Positions 6,452 through 51,677 are shown, counted from the stretch's first letter. The stretch is 64,000 bases of DNA from Candidatus Bathyarchaeia archaeon (GCA_037481775.1 JBBFKZ010000001.1:1-64000); one strand, 5' to 3'. Made by a program: numbers and translations. Notes: generated from the letters alone by a model not told the origin.

Positions 6452-6513
6452 CCACTATTAAAGATTTCGCGGTCAACAAAAACTGTTTCAATAACGCCTT
6501 CTAAAGAAAAAGT

Positions 6514-7302: not shown

Positions 7303-7401
7303 GAGCAAACCGTTTACTTAAAGAGCATAAGCGATATATCAGTTATTGCTTTTTATTTATGCGTGCTCTTCCATATCAATTTATTCAGGTAGCGAAAGGG
7401 T

Positions 7402-8694
7402 ATGGCTGAATCTGACAAGTTAGTTGTTATTGATTGCCAGCTAGCCGGAATTTCAGGCGACATGTTTCTAGGTGCATTAATAGACTTGGGTGCTAACGTC
7501 AGTAAGCTTATTGCAGCCATAAAAGCTCTGGAAAAGCGAGAGTACGGCTACAAAAACATCAAAATTGATGTACAACAAGTTATGCGCAGAGGATTCAAAG
7601 CGACTAAAATCGACGTAACCGCTGACGGCACCAATAGAAAAAATGGCGATGAACTTATCGCGATTGTTGAAGAAACTGCCCGAGAAATTGGGCTTTCCGT
7701 TAAAGCACAGCAGTTCGCATCCAACGTTATCCACACATTAGTTAACGCGGAAGCAGAGCTTCACGGAAGTTCGTTGTCAAATGCTCACTTGCATGAAGTA
7801 AGCCTCGTAGATACTGCCGCAGAAATAATTGGCGCCGCAGTCGCCATTGACGACCTTGAACTATTCAACGCTAAAGTATATGCGACACCGGTGTCGGTTG
7901 GCGGCGGCTTATTCCAGTTCTCGCACGGCACAGTTTCCAGTCCTGCACCGGCAACATTGGAGATACTTAAGTCAAGGAGCTTCCCACTAAAAGGCGGACC
8001 AGTTGAGTCAGAATTAACTACACCGACGGGAGCAGCCATTTTAGTTAACCTCGCAACGGAAGTAATCAGATTCTATCCGGAAATGACGCCGCTAAAAGTA
8101 GGCTACGGAGCGGGAAGCAAGGATTTCAGGGAAATTCCTAATGTTTTACGCGTTATATTAGGCGCGTTATCAGAAAGCGAGTTGCCAACAGACAACGTGG
8201 TTATCTTGGAAACAAACCTTGATGACACAACGGGCGAGGTAATTGGATACGCTATGGATAGACTTTTTCGGGAAGGCGCCAAAGATGTTTGCATCATCCC
8301 AATGTTCACCAAGAAGAACAGACCAGGGCAAATTCTGAAAATAGTGGCTGACTCCAAAGACGCGCAGCGACTTTCACGGTTTATTATTGAAGAAACAGGC
8401 ACGCTTGGAGTTAGAATGTACCCTTGTAGAAGACACATACTTAATCGGAAATTGCTTTCAGTAGATGTGCAAGTAGACGGCGGAGAAGAAACGGTAAAGG
8501 TGAAAGTTGCTAAAGATCAACAGGGCAAAATCATCCAGATTAAACCGGAATATGACGAAGTGAAAAAACTCGCAGAGAAGAAAAGAAAGCCGTTGAGAGA
8601 AATTGCTGAATTAGTTACGTCCCGCGCTAAAGAAATATTATTGGAAAAAGAGGAAGAGGGAAACACTAGTGCAATTAAGCCGAGAGAAAATTGA
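7402..8694 (+). CDS. larC: Nickel-pincer cofactor nickel insertase LarC
   Basis: GISGDMFLGALIDLG, HLHEV, PAPATLEIL, ELTTPTGAA, LETNLDD, ETGTLGVR and KPEYDE motifs. Confidence 0.96.
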   Translation: MAESDKLVVIDCQLAGISGDMFLGALIDLGANVSKLIAAIKALEKREYGYKNIKIDVQQVMRRGFKATKIDVTADGTNRKNGDELIAIVEETAREIGLSVKAQQFASNVIHTLVNAEAELHGSSLSNAHLHEVSLVDTAAEIIGAAVAIDDLELFNAKVYATPVSVGGGLFQFSHGTVSSPAPATLEILKSRSFPLKGGPVESELTTPTGAAILVNLATEVIRFYPEMTPLKVGYGAGSKDFREIPNVLRVILGALSESELPTDNVVILETNLDDTTGEVIGYAMDRLFREGAKDVCIIPMFTKKNRPGQILKIVADSKDAQRLSRFIIEETGTLGVRMYPCRRHILNRKLLSVDVQVDGGEETVKVKVAKDQQGKIIQIKPEYDEVKKLAEKKRKPLREIAELVTSRAKEILLEKEEEGNTSAIKPREN

Positions 8695-9496
8695 AAGCTT
8701 GAAACGCTATATGGCGGAAAAAGGAAGAGACGGCGTAGTAATTGCCTTTTCAGGCGGACTTGACAGTTCAACACTGGCCGCGGTTAGTCGCAATGTTTTA
8801 GGTGATAAGGCAGTAGCGGTTACCGCAAAGTCGCCAACATACCCAGCTGAAGAATTAGAAGACGCCAAAAAAGTAGCAAAAGAGATAGGCATCAAACTTT
8901 ATGTGATAGAAACAAATGAGTTGATGAACGAGAAATTCAGCCGGAACCCGGAAAACCGATGTTACTACTGCAAAAAGGAACTACTGAAGCAGTTGCAAAA
9001 AACGGCAGAGGAAATGGGGTTTAAGGCAGTCTTTGAAGGTACAAACTTGAGCGATTTAACCGAACATAGACCAGGATTTAAAGCGGTTAAAGAAGCGGGA
9101 AATGTGTATAGCCCATGGGTTGAGACGCAGTTTACGAAAGAAGAGATTCGCGCATTAGCCAGAGAACTAGGGCTTTCCATATATAACAAGCCACCTTTAG
9201 CATGCCTAGCCTCAAGGATACCTTACCACGAAAAAATTACAGCGGAAAGATTAGAAAGAATAGAAAAAGCTGAGCAAACAGTGCGGAGGATGACAGGTGT
9301 GCAGCAACTGCGAGTGCGCGATCACAATGGATTAGCTAGAATAGAAGTGGGGAAAGACGAGAGGAAAATCTTTTGCGACATCTCGCTTATGGACCGAGTA
9401 GCCCATGAGTTAAAGAAGATAGGCTTCAAGTACGTGGCGCTTGATTTAGAAGGCTACAAGTCAGGAAGCATGCTTCTTACACTTGAAACTACGTAA
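8669..9496 (+). CDS. larE: ATP-dependent sulfur transferase LarE
   Basis: PP-loop AFSGGLDS, RCYYCKK, HRPG, ACLASRIPY and QLRVRDH motifs; adjacent to larC. Confidence 0.95.
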   Translation: MQLSREKIESLKRYMAEKGRDGVVIAFSGGLDSSTLAAVSRNVLGDKAVAVTAKSPTYPAEELEDAKKVAKEIGIKLYVIETNELMNEKFSRNPENRCYYCKKELLKQLQKTAEEMGFKAVFEGTNLSDLTEHRPGFKAVKEAGNVYSPWVETQFTKEEIRALARELGLSIYNKPPLACLASRIPYHEKITAERLERIEKAEQTVRRMTGVQQLRVRDHNGLARIEVGKDERKIFCDISLMDRVAHELKKIGFKYVALDLEGYKSGSMLLTLETT

Positions 9497-24391: not shown

Positions 24392-25531
24392 ATGTACGCT
24401 TCAAACGGTTACGGTAAAACATCACTCAGTCTTCTGGCGCTCTTATTTGCAGCCGGCTTACTTGTTGGCGCATTAGCAAGCTTCTACATCACATATCAAG
24501 AAATGAATAGGCTAAATGATGAAGTGACATCGCTTCAAAACCGTGTCGCGAGTCTAACAAGCACACAGAACGTTACTTACCAAAACATCATAATCTATCA
24601 GAATGAAACTGAACTGGCCAACATTTACGAGAGTGTTCGTGACTCGGTTGTTTTGATTCAAGGAACCACAAGAAGCGGAGAAGCACAGGGCTCAGGGTTT
24701 GTATATTCTTATTCTGGCAGAAACGTGGTAATAACGAATTATCATGTAGTGCATGGCGCAACAAGCCTAAGCGTCACCTTCTCAAATGGTAATGGCTATC
24801 CTGCGCAGGTTTTGGGAAGCGATCCCTACGCGGACTTGGCGGTTCTTTCAGTTAATGCGCCGGACAGCGAGTTTAAACCCATCGAAATCGTCAGTTCGTC
24901 CACGTTGCGGGTGGGTGATCCGGTTATAGCCATAGGAAATCCTTACGGCTTGGTTGGTTCATTAACCACTGGTGTAGTTAGCGCCATCGGCAGAACAATT
25001 ACTGAGGAAGAATATGCAGGCGGCTTTGCAATTGCGAATATCATACAGACAAGCGCGCCTATAAACCCTGGAAATTCAGGGGGGCCCCTGTTAAATGCCG
25101 CGGGCAAAGTTGTAGGCGTAACAACCGCTATACTATCAGACTCGCAGGGCTTAGGCTTCGCAGTGCCATCAAATACTATTCTCAGGGAAATAGCTGCCTT
25201 GATAACAACTGGAACTTATCGGGACCACTCATATTTGGGCGTTACAGGACAGGACATGAGCTATAGCTTAGCTCAGCAAATAGGAGTGAATGTTACTTAT
25301 GGTTGGCGAATTGCTTCCGTCGTCGCCGGAGGCCCTTCAGACGGCAAACTAAGAGTGAATGATATAATAATTGCTTTGAACCAAACACGAATAAGAAATA
25401 ATGACGACTTGGCAAGTTACCTTGCAGAGAACACATTGCCCGGGCAGCTTCTGAACATAACCGTTGTGCGTGACAGTTCAACAGTCACCGTGAATGTTAC
25501 CTTAGGACGGAGACCAGCACCACCGACGTAA
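24392..25531 (+). CDS. Membrane-anchored HtrA/DegP-like serine protease with PDZ domain
   Basis: TM plus short coiled coil; GSGF, TNYHVV, DLAVL, INPGNSGGPL; C-terminal PDZ. Confidence 0.94.
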   Translation: MYASNGYGKTSLSLLALLFAAGLLVGALASFYITYQEMNRLNDEVTSLQNRVASLTSTQNVTYQNIIIYQNETELANIYESVRDSVVLIQGTTRSGEAQGSGFVYSYSGRNVVITNYHVVHGATSLSVTFSNGNGYPAQVLGSDPYADLAVLSVNAPDSEFKPIEIVSSSTLRVGDPVIAIGNPYGLVGSLTTGVVSAIGRTITEEEYAGGFAIANIIQTSAPINPGNSGGPLLNAAGKVVGVTTAILSDSQGLGFAVPSNTILREIAALITTGTYRDHSYLGVTGQDMSYSLAQQIGVNVTYGWRIASVVAGGPSDGKLRVNDIIIALNQTRIRNNDDLASYLAENTLPGQLLNITVVRDSSTVTVNVTLGRRPAPPT

Positions 25532-36852: not shown

Positions 36853-36914
36853 CATGATCCTGATAGTATTTGCCTCATCAAGCGTTCTTAAACCCTTCAG
36901 AAGGGAGCAAGCAC

Positions 36915-39900
36915 ATGGATAAAGGGCTTGTCGCAATGGCTGTTGCATGCATTGCGATATTGGCATTTTTTATAGGCTATCAGATCTCCATAAGCGGTTC
37001 TCCAAAAGAGGCAACGACAGACGGTGCTGCTGATTGGGATCCTTCCATTACAGTTGAGTTAACACTGAAGGGCGATTCGATAGAAGTCAGCAACTCAAAG
37101 CCAGTATCTGTCAACGGCAGCAAAGCGACAATACTGTTTGGAGGCACATACAAAATAACTGGCACATTAAATGACGGCAGGATAATTGTGTATACAAACG
37201 ACAAGGACCCTGTTAAGCTCATTCTAAACGGAGTCCACATTCGCTGCTCAACGGGCTCGCCGATCAGTATCATGAATGCAGAAGAAACTTTTATAATTTT
37301 AGCCGAGGGCACCGAGAATTTCGTTGAAGATTCAGCCGAGTACATTTTTGATGACCCCGCCAAGAATGAGCCGGATGCTGCCATCTTCTGCAAATCTAAC
37401 CTCACCATAATGGGCGAAGGCGTGCTTAATGTAAAGGGAAATTATAACGATGGCATAACCAGCAAAGACGGCTTAATCATCCAAAGCGGAACCATCAATG
37501 TGAAGTCAGTTGACGACGGCATCAGAGGCAGAGACTTAATTACAGTCAAAAGCGGCGTTTTAAATCTGGAAGTCGGCGGCGACGGTTTGAAATCAGATAA
37601 CCCTGAGAACACAACGCTGGGCAATATTTTTGTCGAGAACGGAACGATCAACATTGTTTCAGGAGGCGATGCATTCCAAGCTGAAAAGAAAGTTTTGATC
37701 AATGGCGGAAGTTTTAACTTGAAAGCCGGTGGAGAAAGCAGCAGCACTGCAGCAAGCAATGTTTCAGCTAAAGGCATCAAGGCACTCGACCGTGTAGCAA
37801 TTGAAGGCGGCGTATTTGAGATTTATTCAGCAGACGACGCACTACATTCGAATGGAACAGTAACAGTCAACGGCGGATCACTGAATCTTTCATCAGCTGA
37901 CGATGCCATTCACGCAGGCAACTTGGTGGAAATAACAGGCGGGAACATTAACATCGCAAGATCCTTTGAGGGCATAGAAAGTGCCACCGTCAAGATAAAT
38001 GGCGGAGCCATACGCATCATCTCATCTAATGATGGAATAAATGCTGTTTTGAATGGACAGAATCCTGACTCTGGAGACGTCATTATTCTAAACGGATTCA
38101 TAGAAATTAAAGCAGATGGCGATGGCATACAGGCTGATAGAAACGTCACAATAGCTGGCGGTGATTTTGTTTTCACCACGGGAGGAGGAGGCGGCAAAAC
38201 TGTGGCGGCTAACGCTTCTGCGAAAGGAGTAAAAGGTGTTGCCGGCATCTCGATTAAGGGCGGAAAATTCACGATTAGTTCAGCTGATGATACTATTCAT
38301 TCAAATGGCGCGATAACAGTGAACGCGGGAACCCTTGCTCTTTCATCCAGCGACGACGCAATTCACGCTGAGGGGTCAATAGAGATTAACGGTGGCATCA
38401 TCAAAATTGCGCAAGCTTTTGAGGGTATAGAAGGCGAAATAATAACAGTTAATGGCGGCGAAATAAGCATAGTCTCAAGCGACGATGGCATAGATGCTAA
38501 AGGGAGCCTAACAATTACGCAGGGAACAATAGACATTCAGTCTGGCGGAGACGCAATGCAAGCGAGCACAGATGTTTTGATTTCTGGTGGAAACTTTAAC
38601 TTCACCTCAGCTGGAGGCAGCCTCAGCATCATAGGCAGAAATGATTCAGCCAAGGGCATAAAGGCGGATGTCAGCCTGACTATAAATGGAGGAACATTCA
38701 GGATTGATTCAGCTGATGATGCCATCCATTCAGATGGAAAAGTAACAATAACCGGCGGATCACTCACCCTTTTAACAGGAGATGATACTATCCATGGAGG
38801 AGGCTCGGTGGCAGTTACTGGTGGAGATATTAAAATTATAAATGCTCCAGGAGATCTCGGCAACGACCCGTGGGATAGCTCCACCATTGTCGACGTATGG
38901 CTTAAAGGCAATTCGATTGAAGCCAGTGCTTCTCGCCCGGCATACATCAGTGGCAACAAAGTGATGATCAGATCCGCGGGCACATACAGAATAGCTGGCA
39001 CTTTAAATGAGGGACAAATAATCGTGAATACAAAAGATTCAGGAGCAGTAAAGCTAATTTTAAATGGTGCACAAATTAGTTGCTCCAATAACGCGCCGAT
39101 CTGTGTTTTAGACGCGAGCGAAGTTATTCTTCATCTGGAAGCTGGAACGGAAAATGCCGTAACAGATGGTGCGGTATATGTTTTTGCGAGCCCAAACGCG
39201 GATGAACCGAACGCAGCAGTTTTCAGCCGCACGGCCATGAAGATTACGGGCAGCGGGTTGCTAAGAGTCACGGGCAGATATAATGATGGCATAGCAAGCA
39301 AAGGTGGACTGATAATAGAAAATGGCATGATTGCCGTTAATTCGGTTGACGATGGAATTCGAGGCAAAGATTACCTAATTATCAAGGGCGGTAAGCTCAC
39401 TGTAAATGCTGGCGGCGATGGGCTGAAAGCAGATAATACTCTGAACGCATCGTTGGGATATGTGAGGATTGAAAATGGATCGATCAACATTGTTGCTGGC
39501 GGCGAAGCAGTTCAAGCAGAAACCAATGTTTTGATCACCGGCGGAAACTTCGATTTAACATGTGGTGGGGGAAGCACTGTGACGGTGGCCGCAGGCGCTT
39601 CTGCCAAGGGCATCAAAGGAAAAGGGAGCATTGTCATCAGCGTCGGCTTCTTTGCCATTAATTCGGCTGATGACGCGGTTCACTCAGATGACGCCATAAC
39701 GGTGAACGGCGGATCTTTTGTGATTTCAACGGCAGATGACGGCATTCACGCTGAAACTTCAATTACCATTAACAATGGTGAGATCAACATAACTAATTCT
39801 TACGAAGGTATTGAAGCACCAGTCATAACAATTAATGGCGGAACCATACATGTCATCTCAAGAGATGACGGCATAAACCTAGGTATTGACTCCGGCGCTA

Positions 39901-40487
39901 TTTCTCCAGCAGGACAACCAGGCGCTAGATTCTCCATTTACTCAGGGGACTACTACTTGTACATTAACGGCGGCTACATTTATGTTAACGCCTTAGGGGA
40001 TGGCATTGACTCGAACGGTGCGGTCGTGATGAATGGCGGCTTTGTAATTGTGGACGGCCCATCCTCCGACATGAATTCTGCCCTGGATCATGTCGCTTTT
40101 AACATGACCAAAGGCTATTTGGTGGCGGTAGGAAGCGCGGGTATGGCTCTGCCGCTTGGAGACTTGTCCGCGCAATACTCAGTGATGCTGAATTTCCGAA
40201 CAGTAAACCAAGCAGGCACCTTGATTTGTGTTCGAGCAAGCAATGGCACAGAATTGTTCACCTTCAGACCTACAAGGCAGTACCAGTCAATCGTCTTTTC
40301 CACGCCTGAACTTTCACTGGGTTCTACGTATGACGTTTACATTGGCGGCAGCCACACAGGCACGCTCAAAGACGGCCTCTACTCTGGAGGAACATACATT
40401 CCTGGAACAAAATACACAAGCTTCACGATCACCGCTAAAGTAACGCAAATTGGCTCCTCAGGGTGGTTTTTCCCTTTTCCAAGATGA
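36915..40487 (+). CDS. Large membrane-anchored beta-helix protein with two Cthe_2159-like (DUF4353) modules
   Basis: N-terminal TM; two GTYxIxGTLxxGxIIV...LILNG...EPxAA...YNDGIxSK modules; repeated SADDAIHS/EGIE/DDGI units. Confidence 0.9.
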   Translation: MDKGLVAMAVACIAILAFFIGYQISISGSPKEATTDGAADWDPSITVELTLKGDSIEVSNSKPVSVNGSKATILFGGTYKITGTLNDGRIIVYTNDKDPVKLILNGVHIRCSTGSPISIMNAEETFIILAEGTENFVEDSAEYIFDDPAKNEPDAAIFCKSNLTIMGEGVLNVKGNYNDGITSKDGLIIQSGTINVKSVDDGIRGRDLITVKSGVLNLEVGGDGLKSDNPENTTLGNIFVENGTINIVSGGDAFQAEKKVLINGGSFNLKAGGESSSTAASNVSAKGIKALDRVAIEGGVFEIYSADDALHSNGTVTVNGGSLNLSSADDAIHAGNLVEITGGNINIARSFEGIESATVKINGGAIRIISSNDGINAVLNGQNPDSGDVIILNGFIEIKADGDGIQADRNVTIAGGDFVFTTGGGGGKTVAANASAKGVKGVAGISIKGGKFTISSADDTIHSNGAITVNAGTLALSSSDDAIHAEGSIEINGGIIKIAQAFEGIEGEIITVNGGEISIVSSDDGIDAKGSLTITQGTIDIQSGGDAMQASTDVLISGGNFNFTSAGGSLSIIGRNDSAKGIKADVSLTINGGTFRIDSADDAIHSDGKVTITGGSLTLLTGDDTIHGGGSVAVTGGDIKIINAPGDLGNDPWDSSTIVDVWLKGNSIEASASRPAYISGNKVMIRSAGTYRIAGTLNEGQIIVNTKDSGAVKLILNGAQISCSNNAPICVLDASEVILHLEAGTENAVTDGAVYVFASPNADEPNAAVFSRTAMKITGSGLLRVTGRYNDGIASKGGLIIENGMIAVNSVDDGIRGKDYLIIKGGKLTVNAGGDGLKADNTLNASLGYVRIENGSINIVAGGEAVQAETNVLITGGNFDLTCGGGSTVTVAAGASAKGIKGKGSIVISVGFFAINSADDAVHSDDAITVNGGSFVISTADDGIHAETSITINNGEINITNSYEGIEAPVITINGGTIHVISRDDGINLGIDSGAISPAGQPGARFSIYSGDYYLYINGGYIYVNALGDGIDSNGAVVMNGGFVIVDGPSSDMNSALDHVAFNMTKGYLVAVGSAGMALPLGDLSAQYSVMLNFRTVNQAGTLICVRASNGTELFTFRPTRQYQSIVFSTPELSLGSTYDVYIGGSHTGTLKDGLYSGGTYIPGTKYTSFTITAKVTQIGSSGWFFPFPR

Positions 40488-43117: not shown

Positions 43118-43312
43118 TTAGAGCTCTTTTATTTCACATTTAAGCTTTTTAATAATTTCCTCTGCTTTTAGAGGCTCCACCCTCAGAGTGTAAAGCTTAC
43201 TTGGTGTGCGGAGTTTAAGCTTCACAGCATCCTTAAGCCGTTTAACGGCGCAATATTTTGCTTTGGCACTCATCGCCACAAATTTTTCTGCATCGGAGAT
43301 TTCGGCGGGCAT
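43118..43312 (-). CDS. rpl38e: 50S ribosomal protein eL38 (L38e)
   Basis: 64 aa basic protein with MPAEI...F...VKLKLRTPSKLYTL signature. Confidence 0.85.
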   Translation of the reverse strand: MPAEISDAEKFVAMSAKAKYCAVKRLKDAVKLKLRTPSKLYTLRVEPLKAEEIIKKLKCEIKEL

Positions 43313-43454
43313 ATGCTAACCTCACATCAGACGCTTTCATGGAAAGCTAAGCGACTTTTATCTGTTTTGGTATCAAATAGTTATTTCAGCAAAATAGCGC
43401 ACACAGCGTTAATAGGGGCAATTATAAGGCAAAGTTAATCCGAAAACTGGCTTT

Positions 43455-43889
43455 TCACCTTTTTATTTTTCCGACCTCTAATGTTTCATAAGATTTTTTG
43501 ATTTTCCGAATTGGCACTTCACGGTTCACATAAAGCGTGTCTTTAACGAAAAGTACAGAGGTCGGGGTTAAACCGCGAATTCTTGCGTTTTGATAGGCAA
43601 AGATAATGTTGCCGCCTAAATCAATGATGCAGCTGTCATCGTTAGCTTCAACCCAACATTTATAGACCCATATGGTGCAAGCATCATCAGCTTCAACTAT
43701 GCAGCCGACTAAATGCCTTTCTTCTTTTCCTTTGACAATAATCCGTGGAATTTTCGGGTTAGCCTTTACGCGCTCTTTCGAGACGAAACAGGCGCCATGC
43801 CACAAAACTCCACGCTCGTCAACTACCGCATAGTTTTTTTCATCGTTTAGGATAGGTTTTCCGCATGGGCATACATCAGTTTTATCCAT
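43455..43889 (-). CDS. Hypothetical protein with N-terminal Cys/His putative zinc site
   Basis: CPCGKPI...WHGAC; ATG 43889 downstream of a TATA and the phased repeats. Confidence 0.6.
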   Translation of the reverse strand: MDKTDVCPCGKPILNDEKNYAVVDERGVLWHGACFVSKERVKANPKIPRIIVKGKEERHLVGCIVEADDACTIWVYKCWVEANDDSCIIDLGGNIIFAYQNARIRGLTPTSVLFVKDTLYVNREVPIRKIKKSYETLEVGKIKR

Positions 43890-43958
43890 ACGGACTAATC
43901 CTTTCAAAGTGTTTTTACGTATGAGACTCAAATTTTGTTTTAAACTTGCAGACAAAGG

Positions 43959-44002
43959 TTAAATGGATTTTTCAGAATTGCTTCACATTTACACCCAAAT
44001 TT
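43959..44002 (-). promoter_or_regulatory. Promoter with three 11-bp-phased direct repeats
   Basis: Minus strand AAATTTGGGTG TAAATGTGAAG CAATTCTGAAA AATCCATTTAA. Confidence 0.5.
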
Positions 44003-44137
44003 TAGTCTCTTTCAAATAATCCAAAGCTCGTCTTTTGAGGTCTTGTCAGTTGCATTGTTAGTTTAAACTTCAAGCTGAGCAAAACTGCCTTGAACTTGCC
44101 AATGAAATGGCGTGGATTTAAAAAGCAATTATGTTAA

Positions 44138-45367
44138 CTATGGTCTTGCAGCCAACTTAAGCGGCACAGTCAAACTTTGGCTACCGCGAACTATTATGAC
44201 GTTAATGGTTTCACCTGGCAAAGTATATTCCTCTAAGAAGGTTGAAAGATCATCTATACCCCTGATTCTCGTCCCGTTTATTGCTACTATTATGTCGCCT
44301 CCAATCGTCACGTATTCACCAGCAACTGAAACGATGCGCGTTCCACCATGCAAGCCTGCTTCGGCAGCGGGGCCTGTGCTTGCAACCTGGGCAATCAGCC
44401 AACCATATGTCACGTCAACGCCCATCACCTTCGCTATTTCATAAGTCATATCAGTTCCTGAAGCACCAATCCATGAATGGTTATTGTAAGAGCCAGTCTC
44501 AACCAGAGAATCAAGTTCGCGGAGCACCGTACTTGAGGGAATCGCGAAGCCTAATCCTTCAGAATCACTTAAAATGGCAGTGGTTATGCCGACTACTTGG
44601 CCTTGATAGTTTAGAAGCGGCCCGCCTGAATTACCAGGATTTATGGGCGCAGTCATCTGTATTACGTTTGCTATGGGATAACCACCAGACATTTCTTCAG
44701 TAATCGTTCTACCTAACGCGCTAACTATGCCGGTGCTCATAGAACCCGCTAGCCCATAAGGGTTGCCGACGGCTATTACTGGGTCGCCAACATTTAATGA
44801 CGCTGAACTGACAATCGTTAAAGGTTTGCATTCGCTTTCTGGCGCGCTTGTCAGAAGCACTGCTAGATCAGCGTAAGGATCAGATCCGATGACGGTGGCG
44901 TTATAACTGTTGCCGTTTATGAAAGTTACAGTGATATTAATCGCGTCTTGGACTACATGATAATTTGTAATGACGATTATCTGTCCTGAATGATTGTAGA
45001 TGAAGCCGGAGCCTTGAACTTGCGAGTAATAGGCATGACGGAAAATGTCATACTGCACCAGCAACCCGCGAATTACAACAACTGAATCCCGCACTTCAGT
45101 GTATAATCTCGAAAGCGATGTGTTCTCGCCAATTATGAAAGTGTTACCCCCGCTTGTCGTGTTTGATATGTCGAGAGAAGTTGAGATTTGCCTTTGAAGT
45201 GCCGAGACTTGATTTTGCAGATCATTTATGCTTGGAGACAGAATCAAGTTACTTAATGCACAGCCAAGTAAGCCGCCAGCTAAAAGGCTGCTGATTATGA
45301 TAACGGCAATAATCTTCGTGGAATAACGGGGTGTTTCAGTTTTCTGTTCAGTCGACATCGTCATCAT
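44138..45367 (-). CDS. Membrane-anchored HtrA-like serine protease with PDZ domain
   Basis: TNYHVV, DLAVL, INPGNSGGPL; PDZ with GDIIVAING. Confidence 0.94.
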   Translation of the reverse strand: MMTMSTEQKTETPRYSTKIIAVIIISSLLAGGLLGCALSNLILSPSINDLQNQVSALQRQISTSLDISNTTSGGNTFIIGENTSLSRLYTEVRDSVVVIRGLLVQYDIFRHAYYSQVQGSGFIYNHSGQIIVITNYHVVQDAINITVTFINGNSYNATVIGSDPYADLAVLLTSAPESECKPLTIVSSASLNVGDPVIAVGNPYGLAGSMSTGIVSALGRTITEEMSGGYPIANVIQMTAPINPGNSGGPLLNYQGQVVGITTAILSDSEGLGFAIPSSTVLRELDSLVETGSYNNHSWIGASGTDMTYEIAKVMGVDVTYGWLIAQVASTGPAAEAGLHGGTRIVSVAGEYVTIGGDIIVAINGTRIRGIDDLSTFLEEYTLPGETINVIIVRGSQSLTVPLKLAARP

Positions 45368-46157
45368 CTTGATACTTCAGTTTTTTCCTACAAGAGGGAC
45401 ATACGGTATCGCCAGCTTGAATTTTGCCGCCGCAGAAAGGGCACATAAGCTTCTTTTTCACTAAATGGAGACCTTGCTTCTCCTTTGTTATTTTTCCATC
45501 ATTCAAAAATAGCAACCGTTCAGTTTGAGAAGCCACGTGACTATCATGCGTCACCATTATGATGGTTGTTCCTTGATTAATATTGAGATTAGCAAGCAGC
45601 CTAACAATTTCATATTTGTTCTTGGCATCCAAATTTCCCGTGGGCTCATCCGCAAGAATCAAAGCAGGATTATTCGCCAATGCCCGTGCAATTGCTACTC
45701 GCTGTTGTTCACCAGCACTGAGACGCTGTGGCCTATGATCCTCTCTTCCAGAAAGACCAACCATCGCCAAAAGCTCACTAGCCCGCCGTTTTCTTTCATC
45801 TTTAGGCACTTTCAGGCTTTCCATAGGCAACTCCACATTTTCCCGCGCATTCAAATAAGGTAGCAAATTGAAAGTTTGGAAAACAAAGCCAATCTTGCTA
45901 CCGCGTATTTTGTAAAGCTCCTTCTCTGGCAAACGTGTAACGTCAATACCGTCAAGCAGAATGCGTCCTGCAGTGGGCTTGTCAAGACAGCCCAGGATGT
46001 TCAGCAGTGTCGTCTTTCCTGAGCCAGATGGTCCCATAACTGCAACAAACTCGCCTTTATTCACCTGGAGATTCACGTTGGAAAGAGCATGCACGCTGCG
46101 TTTGCCTAGCAGGTAAGTTTTGGATAAATTTTCAAGTTTTAATACCGCTTCATTCAT
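45348..46157 (-). CDS. ABC ATPase (LolD/MacB type) with C-terminal zinc ribbon
   Basis: [38 protein letters not shown]; CPFC...CPSC tail. Confidence 0.95.
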
Positions 46158-47592
46158 ATCTCATTGCCTCCGCAGGTCTTGTTCTCGCTGCACGCCACGC
46201 GGGATATAAACTACCTAATGCGCCTAGAAGCACTGATGCGCCGAGTGCCATCATCACCAGTTCAGGAGTCAATGTTATCGACACTGTTCCAGTTGGCGCT
46301 GTTGCTGAGGTAACACCGCGACCGAGATTAACTTGTTGTGTTACGGTGGGAAGCAATAGTCCGGAGAGCGTCGGTGCAGCATAACTGGCTATTGCAATTC
46401 CAGCTATGCTCGCTGCCAGACTTAATAGTATACCTTCAAGCATGAACTGTTTCATCACGGTCCAGTTACTGAAGCCTATAGCCTTAAGCGTGCCAATCTC
46501 GCGTGTTCTTTCACGCACAGTGTACAGCATCAGGAACAGAACTATCAAGCTTGCCGCTGCGACTGCCACAATTGTGACTTGAATTGCAGTGCTTTGAGTT
46601 TGCGCAAGAGTTGATTCAGCATTAGCTAAAGCTGTCTCGTAATTTGCTCGCACAGCCTCAAGCTGCTGTAGGCGCTGTTGGCCAGTGACCACAGTGAGCT
46701 CTGGGTGTAATTCGCTTATAGCACTCGCAACCTCATTTACAATGTCGCTGGATTCAGCGAACACCGTTAACCCTGTTATGTACCCAACATTATTGGTCAA
46801 TGATTGCGCGTCAGACAAGTTCATGTATAATGTCAACTGGTCTTCAACGCCAGTGGACCCATGAATGCCTACAACCAGAAAAGTTTGCCCCAGAATTTCA
46901 ATTGTATCGCCAACTCCAGCACCGAAAAACGCCGAGTTGTTAGCGCTTATGAGAACGACACCGCTGTCTCCTGCCTGCAGATTTCGCCCAGCAGTGATAT
47001 TCGTTGGCAAAATTGGACAGTTCTCGATGATTGGAGAGGTTAAGGGAACACCTTCAATCACATAATCCACAATAAGTCGCGTGAAACTTCGCCCGAACCT
47101 CTCTATAGTTTGGTTGGTTCCTTGCGACACCGTTAACGTCGGCACAACCGCAGCAACACCATCAATTGAGCTAACGTCATAATAGAGACTTTCATTCATT
47201 GGAGTATTTCCTCGGCTACCGAATTGGCCGCCACCAAATTGGCCAGGGATGTTGCCTCCGCCAAACGGGCCAGATGAAGTAAAGTTACCACCGCTAGGAG
47301 GCTGAGGCATAGTGCCTAAACCGCCAGAGCCTAGTGATGCAAACCCAAACCCTTCAAAACTTGAGGCCAACGTACATTCTATTTGGGTCAATGTCTGGTT
47401 AATTGTTGCTTCCGTCTGCGTGATAATGTTTCCGAGATTCTGAGTTAAGAGCATTGTAGATTCCTGATTCGCGGTTACACCCGCGGGAATGGAAACCATA
47501 ATTGCCATGCAAAAACCCAAGGCAATAATCACTAACAAAGCGCGGATTTTGCGCCGTGAGATGTTTCGAATAGCTCTTGATAGGACACCCAA
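46150..47592 (-). CDS. ABC permease, MacB/FtsX family
   Basis: TM1, large extracellular domain with a Gly-rich insert, VRERTREIGTLKAIG and YPAWRAA...EAMRYE. Confidence 0.94.
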   Translation of the reverse strand: MGVLSRAIRNISRRKIRALLVIIALGFCMAIMVSIPAGVTANQESTMLLTQNLGNIITQTEATINQTLTQIECTLASSFEGFGFASLGSGGLGTMPQPPSGGNFTSSGPFGGGNIPGQFGGGQFGSRGNTPMNESLYYDVSSIDGVAAVVPTLTVSQGTNQTIERFGRSFTRLIVDYVIEGVPLTSPIIENCPILPTNITAGRNLQAGDSGVVLISANNSAFFGAGVGDTIEILGQTFLVVGIHGSTGVEDQLTLYMNLSDAQSLTNNVGYITGLTVFAESSDIVNEVASAISELHPELTVVTGQQRLQQLEAVRANYETALANAESTLAQTQSTAIQVTIVAVAAASLIVLFLMLYTVRERTREIGTLKAIGFSNWTVMKQFMLEGILLSLAASIAGIAIASYAAPTLSGLLLPTVTQQVNLGRGVTSATAPTGTVSITLTPELVMMALGASVLLGALGSLYPAWRAARTRPAEAMRYE

Positions 47593-47770
47593 CTATTTCA
47601 CCCGCCAAGCTATTTCAGAAAAAAGGCAACCAAAAAGAGGGATGTTAAAAAACGGTAAGTGGAGTGCTGCTTTGCTTGATGGCACAGGCTTTGCCCGCAA
47701 TTCCAGATTTACTTGTGTCAGTTAATCATTCCCCCTTTTCGGTTGCCGAAAGTTGTTGTAAAAATAGAGC

Positions 47771-47880
47771 ATTAAACTGTTTTTCAGAATCATTTCCTAA
47801 TCTCTACAGAATTTTACAATTTTCAATAATAATATAGCATGGAAATAAATTCTGAGACAAATTTGGAAAAATCATTAAAT
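47771..47880. promoter_or_regulatory. Divergent promoters, each preceded by phased ATTYKG-type repeats
   Basis: Minus: ATTCTG/ATTAGG/ATTCTG at 11-bp spacing then TTTAAT; plus: ATTCTG/ATTTGG at 12-bp spacing then ATTAAAT. Confidence 0.55.
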
Positions 47881-48001
47881 AACTATTCGCAGCATTTTTA
47901 ATGCTGTAAAGGCAGCAGATAAGGCTGCAAAAAAGCAACAAGCAAATTCCCTATTGTTCATTTGCTTGTTGATAAACACAATATTTAGGCTGGTAGCTAC
48001 C

Positions 48002-49042
48002 TTGGAGCTTCCAAAAGAACAGAAAAGAACAATTTCGCTCCTTCTCGTAGTAGTGATTGCAGCGGCAAGTCTCGCTACAGGCGGATTTATAGGCTATTGG
48101 GCAGGCAATACAGCTACCGCGAACAGAATTGATACGCTACAGAAGCAGTTAGCAGCAATTCAGGAACAGATTGATAATCTTCAAGCAAAATCAGAAACAG
48201 CCAGTCAGAATCAGAGTAGTATTTTGGAAACAATTAACGTACTTCAAAGCCAACTTTCGGAGATTAACAACCAAATCAGCAATCTTCAAGCAATTAACGT
48301 GACCAGCCAAGACATCGATGAAATTATGGAAGAAATCAGTAACCTCAGAAGCCAGCTGGTGGCCTTAAAATCACAAATTAACGATTTTGAGTCAACGACG
48401 AATATAATTTACATGTTAGGAGAAAATGTTTCACTTTCCCAACTCTTTGAGCAGGTGCGGGAGTCAGTTGTTGTGGTTAAAGGATTAAGACGCACCATTT
48501 TATGGTATGGCATTGTTTATTCACAGGTGCAGGGTTCAGGTTTTGTCTATAACTATTCGGGGCAACTGGTTATCTTGACAAATAATCACGTAATTGAAAA
48601 TGCAATAAATATAACGGTAACACTTACCAATGGCAAAATGTACTCAGCCACGGTTAAAGGTTCTAACCCAAACACAGATGTTGCAGTACTTACCTTGAGC
48701 GCGCCGCAAAGCGAGTTGAAACCTCTGGTTATGGTTAGTTCATCAACTCTAAAAGTAGGAGATCCCGTGATAGTGGTTGGTACACCATATGGCCTAGAAG
48801 GTTCGATGAGCAATGGCATAGTAAGCGCCTTGAACCGCACCATAACCACAGAGTCCTCTACTTTGACCAATATTATACAAACGACGGCGCCGTTAAATCC
48901 TGGTAATTCAGGCGGGCCGCTTCTAAACTATCAAGGCCAAGTAGTCGGCATGGCTACAGCCATAGTTGAAGATTCGCAGGGTATAGGGTTTGCAATACCT
49001 TCGGACACAATCTTGCAAGATGTTAGGAGAATTATGAGCTAA
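48002..49042 (+). CDS. HtrA-like serine protease, long coiled coil, no PDZ domain
   Basis: TM, ~90-aa heptad region, TNNHV, DVAVL, LNPGNSGGPL; ends right after the protease domain; start (TTG 48002) uncertain. Confidence 0.92.
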   Translation: MELPKEQKRTISLLLVVVIAAASLATGGFIGYWAGNTATANRIDTLQKQLAAIQEQIDNLQAKSETASQNQSSILETINVLQSQLSEINNQISNLQAINVTSQDIDEIMEEISNLRSQLVALKSQINDFESTTNIIYMLGENVSLSQLFEQVRESVVVVKGLRRTILWYGIVYSQVQGSGFVYNYSGQLVILTNNHVIENAINITVTLTNGKMYSATVKGSNPNTDVAVLTLSAPQSELKPLVMVSSSTLKVGDPVIVVGTPYGLEGSMSNGIVSALNRTITTESSTLTNIIQTTAPLNPGNSGGPLLNYQGQVVGMATAIVEDSQGIGFAIPSDTILQDVRRIMS

Positions 49043-49208
49043 ACTAAGCAGCCGCTTATTCGCGTTCAGGCAAAAAGGCTGCTGAAATAAAAAAAGTGCA
49101 ATAAGCGTTCTCGAGTTCAACCGTGTGCACTTTAAGGTGGCTATAAACTATATTTACTGCTTGCTACATTCATTTTGACCAAAAATCGCGCTAAAGGGAA
49201 GAGGTTCA

Positions 49209-49523
49209 GTGTCTGCTAGTACACGCGGCTTAAAATATGTGTTGGGTTGGCTTATAGCAGGCACTCGCGGCGGTGTAACTCGCGCCAAGATAATTGAGGC
49301 GCTACGGCAAGCTCCGCAGAATGCAAATCAATTAGCCTCTTTGCTAGAGCTGGATTATCGAACGATAAGGCATCACTTGAATGTTCTTCAGAAGAATAGG
49401 CTTATCACAACTGCCGGAGAAGGATATGGCACAACCTATTTTCTTTCCACGCTCTTAGAGGAAAATTACGATTTGTTTGAGGAGATAGTGAATAAAATTT
49501 GGAAAAAGGAAAAAAGGAAGTAA
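49209..49523 (+). CDS. Winged-helix (ArsR-like) transcriptional regulator
   Basis: WLIAGTRGG..R..I, NANQLA...LDYRTIRHHL and GEGYGTTYFLS. Confidence 0.9.
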   Translation: MSASTRGLKYVLGWLIAGTRGGVTRAKIIEALRQAPQNANQLASLLELDYRTIRHHLNVLQKNRLITTAGEGYGTTYFLSTLLEENYDLFEEIVNKIWKKEKRK

Positions 49524-49528
49524 TGTAG

Positions 49529-49987
49529 ATGAAAACGTGTATGAATGATAAAATAAAATTTGGTTTAACGATTGTTCTGATAGCAATGGTGGGACTCCTT
49601 GCAGCAGCATGGGCTATCGCGGTTGAAAAAGCAGCACCTTTACTGGAACCCAGACCGTTCCCACCACCTTATCTGGGCAGTACTAGTTTTAGAGGCGACT
49701 TGGAGGTCTTTTACATAGCCAAAACAGTCATTTCTTCCATGAACTTGACGATGGTAACCATCTTGCTGGGAACCTATATTAGTCTATATAGAAAAACCAA
49801 ATCAGAATTTGTCATTGGACTAATAGTGTTCACATTGGTTTTGCTGTTCTACACTGTTGTTTCTAACCCAATTGTCATATACCTCGCGGGTTTCCGCGCT
49901 TTTGGCTTAGGACCGTTTGCAATGCTACCTGACTTGTTCACGCTAATAGCGTTAGGAATATTGCTCTACCTAACTTTGAAATACTAA
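49529..49987 (+). CDS. Four-TM membrane protein coupled to the wHTH gene
   Basis: Four hydrophobic segments; YRKTKSEF loop; 5 bp after the regulator stop. Confidence 0.8.
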   Translation: MKTCMNDKIKFGLTIVLIAMVGLLAAAWAIAVEKAAPLLEPRPFPPPYLGSTSFRGDLEVFYIAKTVISSMNLTMVTILLGTYISLYRKTKSEFVIGLIVFTLVLLFYTVVSNPIVIYLAGFRAFGLGPFAMLPDLFTLIALGILLYLTLKY

Positions 49988-50107
49988 AAGCGGCTGATAC
50001 CACGTGAAAAAGTCAATCTAAATTTAAACGTGACCGCAAAGCTAGCGGGAAATGAAACAATTTTAAATGCGAAAAGGCATAAAAAAATAAACAGCGAGGA
50101 AACTGCA

Positions 50108-50317
50108 ATGAGTGAAAATAACGTTTTGGTTTCAATAACTGCAAGCAGAGAAAAAGACGAAATCGTTTACCGCGTAGAATGCGCCAGCAATCTAACAGAA
50201 GAGGAATTCGAGTATTACCTAAGCGAAATAATCAAGGGCTTATGCAAGTGGAAAAAGACCGTTTGCGAAGACAGCATCAGAAACTTCAGCGGAAAAATTA
50301 AGGCAAAGAAAAAATAA
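50108..50317 (+). CDS. Small hypothetical protein
   Basis: GAGGA SD before ATG 50108; no family recognised. Confidence 0.5.
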   Translation: MSENNVLVSITASREKDEIVYRVECASNLTEEEFEYYLSEIIKGLCKWKKTVCEDSIRNFSGKIKAKKK

Positions 50318-50438
50318 GAACGCTTGGCAGTTGAATATAGATGAGGGCAACGGATATCGCCCTAACGCAGATAATGGAGCATACTGAAAGCACGTAAGAA
50401 TCTACGATAGAGCTTGATTAACGGAGCAAAATAAAAAA

Positions 50439-51677
50439 ATGAAGCAACCCGCTATTTCATCGTTGATTCTAATATTGTTAATTGTAGCGGCGTTGTTCTT
50501 TGTTTCATACTCCATGTCAAGTAACAACAAAAAGGAGCCAGAGGGCTTCTATTTGGGAGTTGCCTTCTGTGGCAATACCACAGCGGAAGCTAAACTGTTA
50601 ATAGATAAGGTAAAGGGATACACGAATCTTTTTGTTCTGCAATCCTGGCCCATAAGCAACAACGAAACCGCTGCAACAGAAATCTGCGATTACGCTGTGG
50701 CTTCGGGGCTCAATATTATTGTTAATTTCGGCATAAATTGGAGCTACAGCAGAGTTTGGACATGGCAGTTTCCTTGGCTTGAAGCAGCCAAACAACGATA
50801 CGGCACCCGATTCCTAGGGGCATATTACGATGACGAACCAGCTGGAAACCAGCTTGACTACAACTGGTTTAACTTCTTCCTCAAATATTCAAGCTATTTC
50901 AAAGAAAACCCGCATAAAAGTCTTCTTCACGAGATTTTTGCGGATTTGGAAGATAAAATGGCGAATGTCACCATGCATGAACCAAAGGACTATGACACTG
51001 AAGCAGCATGGTTTCAAATGCTTTTTGAGAACAATAATGGTCTCCAATCTTTAAGGAAGGCGGGAATTAGAACGTTTACCTCAGACTATGTTCTTTACTG
51101 GTTTGACTACTTAGGAGGGTATGACGTTATGCTTGCCCAGTTCGGCTGGAACAACAGCTACATCCAAGACATAGCGCTTGTTAGAGGCGCCGCGCGAATG
51201 CAGGACAAATCATGGGGCGCAATAATCACATGGAAATATACTGAGCCTCCCTACTTGGACAGCGGTGAAGAAATCTACCGCCAAATGCATGCAGCCTACG
51301 AAGCAGGCGCCGAGTACGTGGTAATATTTAATTATCCGCAGATTGAAGAGAACCCATATGGCGCACTTAAAAGTGAACATTTTGAAGCACTGCAGAAACT
51401 ATGGGATGAAGCAACACAGAAGCCCAGAAATGCAGATGCCGGACAAGCAGAGGCGGTGCTTGTTTTGCCAAGGAACTACGGGTGGGGAATGCGGCATCCT
51501 GAAGATTGGATCTGGGGTTTCTGGGGGCCAGACGCGAAATCTCAGCTGATATGGGAAGTCTCTCGCAAACTCATTTCACAGTATGGCACACGCTTAGACA
51601 TAGTCTATGATGACCCTGAATTTCCTGTAGAAGGGAAATATCCGCTAATTTACTATTGGAACCAAACAGTACAATGA
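50439..51677 (+). CDS. Exported/membrane-anchored hypothetical protein (intact paralog of 3770-4345)
   Basis: N-terminal hydrophobic segment; GAYYDDEP, FTSDYVLYWFDY, WGAIITW and NYGWGMR motifs. Confidence 0.85.
   Translation: MKQPAISSLILILLIVAALFFVSYSMSSNNKKEPEGFYLGVAFCGNTTAEAKLLIDKVKGYTNLFVLQSWPISNNETAATEICDYAVASGLNIIVNFGINWSYSRVWTWQFPWLEAAKQRYGTRFLGAYYDDEPAGNQLDYNWFNFFLKYSSYFKENPHKSLLHEIFADLEDKMANVTMHEPKDYDTEAAWFQMLFENNNGLQSLRKAGIRTFTSDYVLYWFDYLGGYDVMLAQFGWNNSYIQDIALVRGAARMQDKSWGAIITWKYTEPPYLDSGEEIYRQMHAAYEAGAEYVVIFNYPQIEENPYGALKSEHFEALQKLWDEATQKPRNADAGQAEAVLVLPRNYGWGMRHPEDWIWGFWGPDAKSQLIWEVSRKLISQYGTRLDIVYDDPEFPVEGKYPLIYYWNQTVQ

Follow-up and report, generated by a model that had tools for sequence, protein, structure and literature searches.

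A candidate archaeal extracytoplasmic-stress locus: an ArsR-type regulator coupled to a DUF8036 membrane protein beside HtrA and MacB-type genes

How does an archaeon detect and answer damage to the proteins outside its cytoplasmic membrane? Archaea have no sigma factors and many of their lineages have few two-component systems, and we know of no described archaeal pathway for detecting or answering such damage. The question is raised by a locus at positions 43,455 to 49,987 of a 64,000-nucleotide stretch of DNA (the window) from a Candidatus Bathyarchaeia archaeon (GCA_037481775.1, JBBFKZ010000001.1:1-64000), whose genome assembly comprises 1.82 Mb in 54 contigs and is 96.7% complete. Here the gene for a winged helix-turn-helix regulator (wHTH) directly precedes the gene for a small membrane protein of the family DUF8036, and both lie beside genes for HtrA-type proteases and a MacB-type ATP-binding cassette (ABC) transporter. 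An earlier reading made from the sequence alone (the sequence-only reading) had proposed an envelope-stress system in which the membrane protein acts as a sensor or anti-activator, possibly cleaved by HtrA, and the wHTH activates surface quality-control genes. Our own judgement, drawn from comparison with related loci and held with a little over even confidence, is that wHTH and DUF8036 would form a membrane-linked regulatory pair governing a small extracytoplasmic protein quality-control regulon.

Gene content and recurrence of the locus

The locus holds seven open reading frames (ORFs), given here with the pair first.

49209..49523, plus strand: ArsR-type winged-helix regulator (wHTH), 104 aa; HTH_5 36.5 bits
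49529..49987, plus strand: DUF8036 (PF26119) membrane protein, 152 aa, four transmembrane (TM) helices; precomputed PF26119 assignment and AlphaFold (AF2) model
46150..47592, minus strand: MacB/FtsX-type permease with extracytoplasmic core domain, first in its operon; PF02687 FtsX 68.4 bits, PF12704 MacB_PCD 27.3 bits (cut-off 27)
45348..46157, minus strand: ABC ATPase of MacB/LolD/FtsE type with zinc-ribbon-like C-terminal tail; ABC_tran 126.6 bits
44138..45367, minus strand: HtrA-family serine protease with N-terminal membrane anchor and one PDZ domain, last in the operon; Trypsin_2 109.7 bits, PDZ_2 33.6 bits
47954..49042, plus strand: second HtrA, with membrane anchor, coiled-coil stretch and protease domain, without PDZ, divergent from the FtsX operon; Trypsin_2 114.6 bits
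43455..43955, minus strand: small protein of no assigned family; ORF of 166 aa

All seven exist with the domains and overlaps that the sequence-only reading had given them. By their coordinates, the genes for the permease, the ATPase and the PDZ-bearing HtrA overlap by 8 and 20 nt, and the domain matches agree, those to the zinc ribbon being weak. The divergent HtrA has Trypsin_2 as its only domain together with weak coiled-coil-type matches, in keeping with the PDZ-less coiled-coil protease described. The HTH_5 match, the gap of 5 nt between the wHTH stop and the DUF8036 start, and the four-helix model bear out the tight coupling of a WLIAGTRGG-type wHTH to a 4-TM protein.

The coupling of wHTH to DUF8036 recurs in related genomes. 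DUF8036 is present in 17 of 41 of them, and in all 15 loci cut from these the wHTH gene is directly upstream; FtsX/ABC and/or HtrA genes adjoin in most, and one genome has two pairs, each beside FtsX. A scan of one genome per species covered 80 loci of 267 relatives (five from the window's genus, several repeating the 15-locus set), of which 74 have 400 nt or more of upstream sequence; by an automatic criterion wHTH adjoins DUF8036 in 72 of these. The two misses are an ORF-calling artefact (L052) and a locus without wHTH (L045). In these other loci the two genes often overlap through their stop and start codons. Where the upstream sequence runs to 6 kb or more (53 loci), FtsX was found within 10 kb in 36, HtrA in 40, either in 45 and both in 31, usually in a divergent layout (FtsX in 33 loci, HtrA in 39). 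FtsX-bearing genes and HtrA genes number only three each in the window's genome, and a random 20-kb stretch of it is expected to hold one about 3% of the time; by these neighbourhood counts the gene arrangement is far beyond chance. Because the loci are kin, the counts overstate their independence, and the stronger argument is that the gene layout varies while the link to HtrA or the pump persists: HtrA may be directly divergent with no pump (L025/L100), the pump may stand without HtrA nearby (L028, L040, L041, L078), or the pump may lie downstream (L064, L075, L101, L105).

The link extends well beyond these relatives. A metagenome scan with a four-sequence alignment reached a distant clade (~30% identity; 28 loci), in which wHTH is upstream of DUF8036 in 24 of the 24 loci with room for it. 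HtrA and/or FtsX/ABC genes adjoin, co-directionally, in 10 of these loci, and in 7 of 12 when only loci of at least 4.8 kb are counted; L127, L130 and L143 have the order HtrA-wHTH-DUF8036-ABC-..-FtsX. On haloarchaeal plasmids, wHTH is upstream of DUF8036 in 4 of 4 pairs on 3 of 3 plasmids. Plasmid pSVX82-1 of Haloferax lucentense carries one pair convergent with a Trypsin_2+PDZ protease and a second convergent with a MacB_PCD/FtsX permease, an ABC ATPase and a CARDB protein, and the same protein is also named by the source for Haloferax volcanii. On the other two plasmids the neighbours are different envelope-related genes: the pair of Haloarcula pelagica has an Ig-like protein and an ABC-2 transporter beside it, and that of Halocatena salina has a GT39/PMT-type glycosyltransferase and a gene annotated as a lysyl-phosphatidylglycerol-synthase-like membrane domain. 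A recurring link of the pair to HtrA/MacB genes, chosen beforehand as the test of the sequence-only reading, is seen in Bathyarchaeia, in the distant clade and in Haloferax.

The families of the neighbouring genes can be stated more closely. An FtsX domain, a MacB-like core domain and a separate LolD/MacB-type ATPase identify a MacB/FtsX (type VII) ABC transporter; we name no specific substrate since all scores are under the equivalog cut-offs. The leading NCBIfam rows for the ATPase are LolD, DarD, MacB and FtsE, and its C terminus has a CxxC...CxxC pattern with weak DZR_2 and Zn_ribbon_3 matches over residues 239-261. Both HtrA paralogues have Trypsin_2 and the motifs HV, D(L/V)AVL and GNSGGP of the HtrA/DegP (S1C) family, with a PDZ domain only in 44138-45367, and both score under the DegP, DegQ and DegS equivalog cut-offs; the PDZ-bearing protein, whose translation reads TNYHV, DLAVL and GNSGGP, scores 251 bits with TIGR02037, under the cut-off of 416. 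The PDZ-less ORF stops just past the protease domain, and its residues ~51-150 give coiled-coil-type weak matches only. It probably starts at the TTG at 48002, since its same-genus orthologues are 346 aa long. The 166-aa ORF (43455-43955) encodes an N-terminal Cys/His pattern, CPCG...HGAC, and had no match in Pfam, NCBIfam or the protein Atlas; its product probably starts at the ATG at 43889, giving 144 aa, the length of its orthologues, which were found in the same genus only. In front of the window's gene is a copy of the promoter module described below. No Rfam family matched within 43300-50500 at E<=0.1.

Several further observations concern these neighbours. The tail of the window's ATPase is followed by an acidic stretch (residues 235-269 together); related loci have orthologous ATPase genes about as long (783-810 nt), and the Haloferax ATPase, at 220 aa, is ~50 residues shorter and, judged by length alone, probably lacks the tail. 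In L029 (G007; 7816-9264, minus strand) an in-frame TAA divides the FtsX orthologue into two ORFs; either the gene is defective or the assembly contains a sequencing error at this point. Between the two pairs of pSVX82-1 lies an AglB-type oligosaccharyl transferase gene annotated as archaeosortase A system-associated (L147, 10698-13475, minus strand), and insertion sequence (IS) elements and a gene for transcription factor B (TFB) are near them; the stretch may be an envelope-remodelling island on the megaplasmid. Elsewhere in the window, a third HtrA paralogue (24428-25516, plus strand; Trypsin_2), 56% identical to the operon HtrA, has no promoter module and may be a housekeeping copy, since its orthologues are the HtrA copies of genomes without the pair. 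A 1205-aa secreted protein with many short DDGI/DDAIH-type repeats (36870-40487, plus strand) may form a beta-helix surface protein. Downstream of DUF8036, 50030-51677 (plus strand) holds ORFs of 95 and 412 aa with no family match and conservation within the genus only.

A promoter module beside the pair

A conserved block, TTATTAAA-NNN-TTTTTCAGAATTAGACCCAATTCTATTCCTAATCT, is found in 53 of 72 regions upstream of wHTH. Its opposite strand is an archaeal core promoter, with a TTTAATAA TATA box and an A-rich TFB recognition element (BRE). Upstream of this core are AGAATT-type half-sites ~11 nt apart; an AATTCTG abuts the BRE and is followed by ATTTGGG / GATTAGG, and the half-sites compose the dyads AGAATT-N6-AATTCT and AGAATTAG-N14-CTAATCT. 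TATA box, BRE and AGAATT-type repeats together make a module of 45 nt, in which a T5 run on the BRE side is among the best-conserved positions. The TATA side of the module is 4-170 nt from the start codons of minus-strand genes, and therefore the module fires away from wHTH.

We scanned 75 loci (1.16 Mb) with a core position weight matrix (PWM; TATA-BRE-CAGAATT) at a threshold of at least 18 bits. The 121 copies found stand before FtsX (33), a secreted protein that we call gapX (33), HtrA (9) and the ABC gene (1); a further 22 are before ORFs of other kinds, 80 aa or longer and in many cases signal-anchored, and 23 are before no ORF or at a contig end. Outside the wHTH-upstream regions from which the matrix was built there are 65 copies of at least 22 bits, and HtrA genes kilobases away from the pair still have the module (L097, L111, L112, G040). 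In the window itself two module promoters stand back to back in a common control region of 80 nt and a third lies further on; the element before wHTH is a different one.

47769..47818, minus strand: promoter-module copy A, into the FtsX-ABC-HtrA operon; 54-nt PWM 31.8 bits (47766-47819), core PWM 26.4 bits
47833..47882, plus strand: promoter-module copy B, opposite orientation, into the PDZ-less HtrA; core PWM 22.1 bits, full PWM 11.9 bits
43957..44006, minus strand: promoter-module copy C, towards the 144-aa gene; 54-nt PWM 22.3 bits (at 43954), core PWM 15.5 bits
49141..49157, plus strand: likely the wHTH gene's own core promoter, unlike the module; CTATAAACTATATTTAC, resembling a conserved GACATATTTATTAC box

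Copy A is the best match of the 54-nt PWM in the whole genome, and its parts can be read directly: ATTAAA at 47771-47776, T5 at 47780-47784, CAGAAT at 47785-47790 and CCTAATCT at 47796-47803. It is followed by three matches of ~22 bits, one at 43954 (copy C) and one each on contigs C10 and C8. Copy B is predicted to drive the PDZ-less HtrA and, via read-through, wHTH and DUF8036; locus L109 shares this layout, with the module before a PDZ-less HtrA and then wHTH. Copy C has TTAAAT at 43959-43964, T5 at 43968-43972, CAGAATT at 43973-43979 and the exact word TTTTTCAGAATT, and is the weakest of the three, its core score of 15.5 bits lying in the range where a reversed-PWM control also scores. The window's genome has 8 occurrences of the word TTTTTCAGAAT; permuted words average 1.5, and a count of 8 was reached twice in 300 permutations. 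No related gene follows two other core-matrix matches in this genome (C4:10369 and C1:80706), which were set aside as looking like chance.

Two features beside these promoters deserve mention. A perfect 12-nt inverted repeat, CAACAAGCAAAT-N12-ATTTGCTTGTTG, at 47936-47971, just upstream of the likely PDZ-less HtrA start, could be a second operator or a leader hairpin, and a similar half-site is at 47671-47681, upstream of FtsX. The minus-strand leader of FtsX (47593-47750) is unusually long at ~150 nt, with inverted arms of 18 nt at 47625-47642 and 47730-47747. Compared with shuffled sequences its folding is no better (z = -1.71; 13 of 200 shuffles as good), and it has no Rfam match. Since gapX occupies the same space in other genera, the leader may be a gapX remnant.

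The module is found where the pair is found. We searched the 41 genomes for the pattern TAAANNNTTTTTCAGAATT with up to one mismatch, using the reversed pattern as a control, and crossed the result with the presence of DUF8036. All 17 DUF8036-positive genomes have the pattern (47 matches versus 7 for the control), and 7 of the 24 DUF8036-negative genomes do, at background level (8 matches versus 10). HtrA is near-universal (37 of 41 genomes), and 12 of the 14 genomes with an FtsX orthologue are DUF8036-positive. In G026 (98% complete) and G014 (84% complete) an FtsX-ABC(-HtrA) operon occurs without the pair and without the module, and so in this comparison, of two operons only and from genomes that are kin, the module tracks the regulator pair and not the target genes.

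Across phyla, we scored a 19-nt repeat core, CAGAATTAGACCCAATTCT, from which TATA and BRE had been removed, on three haloarchaeal loci. In the 12-kb Haloarcula pelagica locus the top two matches are CAGAATTGCACCCAAATTC (23.1 bits) and CACAATTACACCCAAATTC (18.6 bits). They are oppositely oriented, and both fall within the 555 nt that separate wHTH from the divergent operon next to it. Of 200 shuffles, one reaches 18.6 bits and none 23.1, and no match as strong was found in 196 kb of other high-GC loci. The other two are weak cases: in Halocatena the second- and third-best core matches form one near-palindromic site in the equivalent region, and in Haloferax the best match (9.4 bits) is upstream of HtrA, with a weaker one after a TATA box that precedes the second pair. 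For the distant metagenomic clade the result is mixed: the top core matches are sensibly placed in L124 and L130, the best in L123 (17.9 bits) is 5 kb from the pair, and L145 and L146 have a perfect dyad, TAGAATTAGG/CCTAATTCTA, just after DUF8036.

The dyad form of the site and its recurrence beside the pair across phyla make wHTH, with high probability, the reader of the module. Another reader is conceivable, either a specialised TFB or TATA-binding protein or an unlinked regulator, with the pair sharing only ancestry and synteny with the module; the conservation of the T5 run on the BRE side would suit such a factor, and all of the evidence for wHTH is by association. We consider this extremely improbable. 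Stripped of BRE and TATA, the repeat core is found again next to the pair in another phylum, whose core promoters differ, the perfect AGAATTAGG/CCTAATTCT dyad follows DUF8036 in L145 and L146, the half-site layout suits a dimeric wHTH, and the pair-less genomes that have the same operon lack the module.

The module also points to further candidate members of the regulon. In at least 21 loci the gene for the secreted gapX diverges from that for wHTH; the protein consists of an anchor, a glycine-rich linker and a C-terminal domain modelled with a per-residue confidence (pLDDT) above 90. The gapX model had no match in the Protein Data Bank (PDB) by Foldseek at E<=0.001. A VIA-align comparison of its C-terminal domain gave Z-scores of 8.5 with an amine oxidase N-domain, 7.9 with a designed cystatin fold and 6.2-6.3 with YpeB, YpmB and a vibriolysin propeptide; at these middling values the nearest folds are cystatin/PepSY-like, which we take as a lead only. 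Protease inhibitors and propeptides use this fold. No gapX was found in the window's genome, where the PDZ-less HtrA takes the place beside wHTH that gapX holds elsewhere. In three loci this place is taken by a secreted helical repeat protein of the LTXXQ/Metal_resist (Spy, CpxP, ZraP) kind.

L091 8904-9362, minus strand: LTxxQ-like secreted protein beside wHTH, with a tandem module
L044 8879-9451, minus strand: LTxxQ-like secreted protein beside wHTH, Metal_resist score under the cut-off
L061 2771-3301, minus strand: LTxxQ-like secreted protein beside wHTH; Metal_resist 31.5 bits (cut-off 29.2), LTXXQ E=5e-4

The window has no LTXXQ/Metal_resist protein. Of the module matches elsewhere in its genome, the one on contig C10 belongs to a 313-aa anchored coiled-coil protein (5299-6240, plus strand) with SLNSQ repeats like those of the PDZ-less HtrA, and the one on contig C8 belongs to an 829-aa secreted protein (5346-7835, minus strand); both surface-protein genes are likely further members of the regulon. 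That wHTH would control surface quality-control genes, as the sequence-only reading had it, is well supported comparatively, by the recurring link and by a module present only where the pair is present.

The two partners and a proposed circuit

The wHTH matches PF01022 HTH_5 (36.5 bits, cut-off 22) and PF12840 HTH_20 (29.4 bits, cut-off 27), which places it among ArsR/SmtB domains, and has weak matches only among solved structures (5duk, E=0.003; PH1932). Its mean column identity is 71% over 31 loci from relatives at the level of genera. The N terminus LGWLIxGTxGG is invariant (LGWLIAGTRGG in the window), and a C-terminal acidic helix, EENYxLFEEI, is conserved. No close paralogue was found in the window's genome. 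A metal-sensing role was considered and rejected, as the 104-aa protein has no cysteine and the metalloregulator model NF033788 scores 35.2 bits against a cut-off of 55. The putative core promoter at 49141-49157 is likely that of the wHTH gene, an assignment we infer from its likeness to the GACATATTTATTAC box, which is 50-70 nt upstream of wHTH in 36 of 72 loci.

DUF8036 is a family for which we know of no function. Its model PF26119 is precomputed on all 120 homologues listed, the window's own cluster included, and the protein Atlas names these clusters DUF8036 with scores of 0.93-0.94; the window's 4-TM protein had no match in a local NCBIfam scan or in a local Pfam scan run without the PF26119 model. 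The family has 499 clusters at 50% identity (E<=0.001), and its source names include Bathyarchaeota, Thermoplasmatota, Asgardarchaeia, Methanomicrobiales and Halobacteria. The AlphaFold model of the 152-aa protein (pLDDT 79) has four long helices and one short one (7-32, 53-90, 93-112, 114-119 and 128-151), and had no fold match in the PDB by Foldseek at E<=0.001.

The positive-inside rule predicts an outward-facing loop between TM1 and TM2. This loop is proline-rich, variable in length and modelled with low confidence (pLDDT 53-61), and relatives have inserts in it, Ig-like in one and helical, of ~45 residues, in others. In the long DUF8036 proteins P0123, P0126 and P0144 the insert is an LTxxQ-like module of ~45 residues, 42% identical over 59 residues (E=2e-11) to the secreted tandem module of L091; the comparison of L061 with P0144 was not significant (E=0.15). 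The presence in the loop of a module otherwise found in secreted proteins supports an outward-facing, stress-related role for it. Together with the tight gene coupling, the variable outer loop is what suggests that DUF8036 could act as the sensor or anti-activator that had been proposed.

How DUF8036 might contact its regulator is less easily seen. The invariant hydrophobic N terminus of wHTH could touch the membrane protein, which is speculation on our part, and a short cytoplasmic loop of DUF8036, YRKTKSEF, has invariant residues; the others are grouped on the predicted outer side (D57, E59, S112, P114 and GLGPF). Co-folding of the wHTH alignment with the DUF8036 alignment scored 0.00 against a mark of 0.32, a result that speaks neither for nor against binding.

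These structural features bear on two alternatives. In the first, wHTH is an ordinary local regulator and DUF8036 is an accessory or protective membrane subunit of HtrA or MacB, co-transcribed for convenience. The very small cytoplasmic surface predicted for DUF8036 fits this, as do its most conserved residues (D57, E59, N72, S112-P114, GLGPF and P134-D135), which are in or near the predicted outer leaflet, a pattern that a small enzyme or binding protein would show; among relatives of 267-2000 aa no fused HTH-DUF8036 was found, which is weak evidence in the same direction. However, wHTH and DUF8036 stay together in nearly every locus of the different phyla, their stop and start codons overlapping, and the pair persists without HtrA or MacB nearby (L103, L107, Halocatena), which fits a regulator-partner unit better. 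We therefore regard the accessory-subunit explanation as rather unlikely.

The second is a cascade of the DegS-RseA type, built on the cleavage idea of the sequence-only reading, in which an anchored HtrA would cut the outer loop of DUF8036, the remnant would be degraded and the freed wHTH would activate its targets. In its favour, the loop is proline-rich and of low model confidence, a PDZ-bearing anchored HtrA is within the regulon, and the putative site lies upstream of the BRE, the usual place for archaeal activators. Against this, the pair occurs with a MacB pump and no nearby HtrA in the four loci named above (L028, L040, L041, L078), no site-2 protease was noticed among the neighbours, the loci having been searched only with the window's own genes, and ArsR-type proteins are mostly repressors. 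We judge such a cascade very unlikely.

The circuit that we propose for the wHTH-DUF8036 pair would work as follows. A wHTH dimer would bind the AGAATT-type half-sites of the 45-nt module, directly upstream of the BRE/TATA of its targets, which in the window's genome would be the FtsX-ABC-HtrA(PDZ) operon, the PDZ-less HtrA and the 144-aa gene, plus two surface-protein genes elsewhere; in most relatives they would also include the secreted cystatin/PepSY-like or Spy/CpxP-like protein. DUF8036, made in a fixed ratio with wHTH, would use its variable loop and the conserved residues in the outer leaflet to sense a cue at the outer face, and would change the amount of free wHTH, the output being more protease, more pump and more secreted helper protein. 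Because the site abuts the BRE, wHTH could either block or recruit TFB. We prefer a version with SdpR/SdpI logic, in which wHTH is a BRE-touching repressor that would be held at the membrane under stress; a released-activator version fits the data about equally well. The apparent strength of the core promoter, and the fact that ArsR-type proteins usually repress, slightly favour de-repression by membrane capture.

Several points weigh against this circuit. The binding of wHTH to DNA and to DUF8036, the signalling by DUF8036 and the cue are what we infer from comparative data, and some other factor, inherited along with the locus, may be what reads the module. The genomes counted for co-distribution are kin and not independent samples. 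Module copies in the window's genome score lower than those in other genera, and in the distant metagenomic clade the Bathyarchaeial matrix gives weak or misplaced matches only and no full module. The wHTH-DUF8036 genes appear mostly to own a different promoter, so that autorepression of the SdpR type via the same site is not evident. Eight of the 53 well-covered loci, including two Terraquivivens loci (L103, L107), have neither FtsX nor HtrA nearby, and in Halocatena the neighbours are glycosyltransferase and lipid-modifying genes instead. The main structural objection to any docking model is that the cytoplasmic surface of DUF8036, as modelled, is confined to a short N terminus, the YRKTKSEF loop and two C-terminal residues.

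Relation to known stress and immunity systems

The nearest analogue in gene order is SdpR-SdpI of Bacillus subtilis, where a gene for an ArsR-type regulator is likewise directly upstream of, and coupled to, a gene for a small multi-pass membrane protein. The portion of PMC2910880 open to us describes a mechanism in which the membrane protein changes the amount of free regulator. The archaeal pair differs in that wHTH scores only 36.5 bits with the SdpR model NF033789 (cut-off 100), which is still its best NCBIfam row, and in that SdpI gave no row among the families matched by 31 DUF8036 members at E<=1, a search in which HMMER filters can drop very weak matches. It also differs in its proposed targets, which are HtrA, a MacB-type pump and secreted proteins and not the pair alone, in being archaeal, and in that no toxin partner was noticed, no systematic search having been made.

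This likeness raises the alternative that the locus provides immunity to, or detoxification of, a secreted peptide toxin in the manner of SdpRI or BceAB/BcrR, with DUF8036 binding the peptide and signalling, the pump removing it and HtrA degrading it. The Bce-type MacB/FtsX pumps of Firmicutes serve peptide resistance, the Haloferax copies of the pair are on a megaplasmid near transposases, and the order and coupling of regulator and membrane protein mirror sdpRI as described in the accessible part of PMC2910880. We nevertheless consider an immunity role quite improbable, as no toxin or bacteriocin gene was noticed beside the pair in the loci examined, again short of a systematic search, the 31 DUF8036 members have no SdpI match, and the other putative regulon members (cystatin/PepSY-like or Spy/CpxP-like secreted proteins and surface proteins) point to protein quality control.

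The bacterial envelope-stress systems share the output of the proposed circuit and none of its parts. Both sigma-E/RseA/DegS and Cpx have an HtrA-family output and a membrane protein between the outside and a cytoplasmic transcription factor, and, as with CpxP in Cpx, some relatives of our locus have a candidate LTXXQ (Spy/CpxP/ZraP-type) secreted protein in the putative regulon, the same module being found in the outer loop of DUF8036. They differ in that our locus has no sigma factor, no anti-sigma domain match and no histidine kinase, and the components are non-homologous. CssRS and BceRS link extracytoplasmic stress or peptide sensing to HtrA or to adjoining FtsX-type ABC pumps; CssRS-HtrA/HtrB and BceRS-BceAB of Firmicutes are, however, two-component phosphorelays, and none is encoded beside this locus. 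The observation in the sequence-only reading that no CssRS, Cpx or sigma-E system is encoded here is upheld: the regulator is an ArsR-type wHTH, its partner has no anti-sigma match and there are no two-component genes beside the locus.

Among archaeal regulators, ArnR/ArnR1, like the bacterial BcrR, control membrane or surface functions with a DNA-binding domain and a few TM helices. Fused transmembrane transcription regulators are reported, in the part of PMC10269533 open to us, to be widespread in archaea. Here, in contrast, an ArsR-like HTH and DUF8036 are two separate ORFs, and no fused form was found. YtrA of Sulfolobus acidocaldarius, a GntR-type repressor of membrane-protein loci that is discussed for envelope stress in the accessible text of PMC6746942, is likewise an archaeal local regulator of small membrane-protein operons; as far as that text goes, it differs in belonging to another regulator family, in having no obligatory membrane partner gene and in having no HtrA/MacB targets. 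The locus thus resembles SdpRI, sigma-E/RseA/DegS, Cpx and a split BcrR/ArnR, and is a member of none of them. In the literature open to search, which leaves out subscription journals, we found no publication on DUF8036 or PF26119 and nothing linking Bathyarchaeota, HtrA, an ABC transporter and a transcriptional regulator; broader searches of the same literature found only bacterial systems, fused archaeal membrane regulators, Psp and YtrA.

As judged by comparison of genomes, the pair, its DNA element and a coherent surface-protein regulon appear to be conserved across archaeal phyla, with parts that are non-homologous to those of the bacterial circuits. A wider reading, which we hold tentatively and at less than even confidence, is that wHTH-DUF8036 would be a widespread and ancient archaeal pathway for stress outside the membrane and a functional counterpart of sigma-E, Cpx or CssRS. 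Its half-site (AGAATT/AGAATTAG) would be conserved from Bathyarchaeia to Halobacteria, its core regulon would comprise HtrA, a MacB-type mechanotransmission pump and small secreted chaperone- or inhibitor-like proteins, and a CpxP-like module in the DUF8036 loop may read the stress in some lineages. The locus offers a concrete candidate for such a pathway, in which the regulator and its membrane partner are named, the DNA element is defined and a regulon is predicted, and because Haloferax relatives have HtrA and MacB neighbours, the idea can be tested by ordinary genetics. If it is true, DUF8036 would gain a function.

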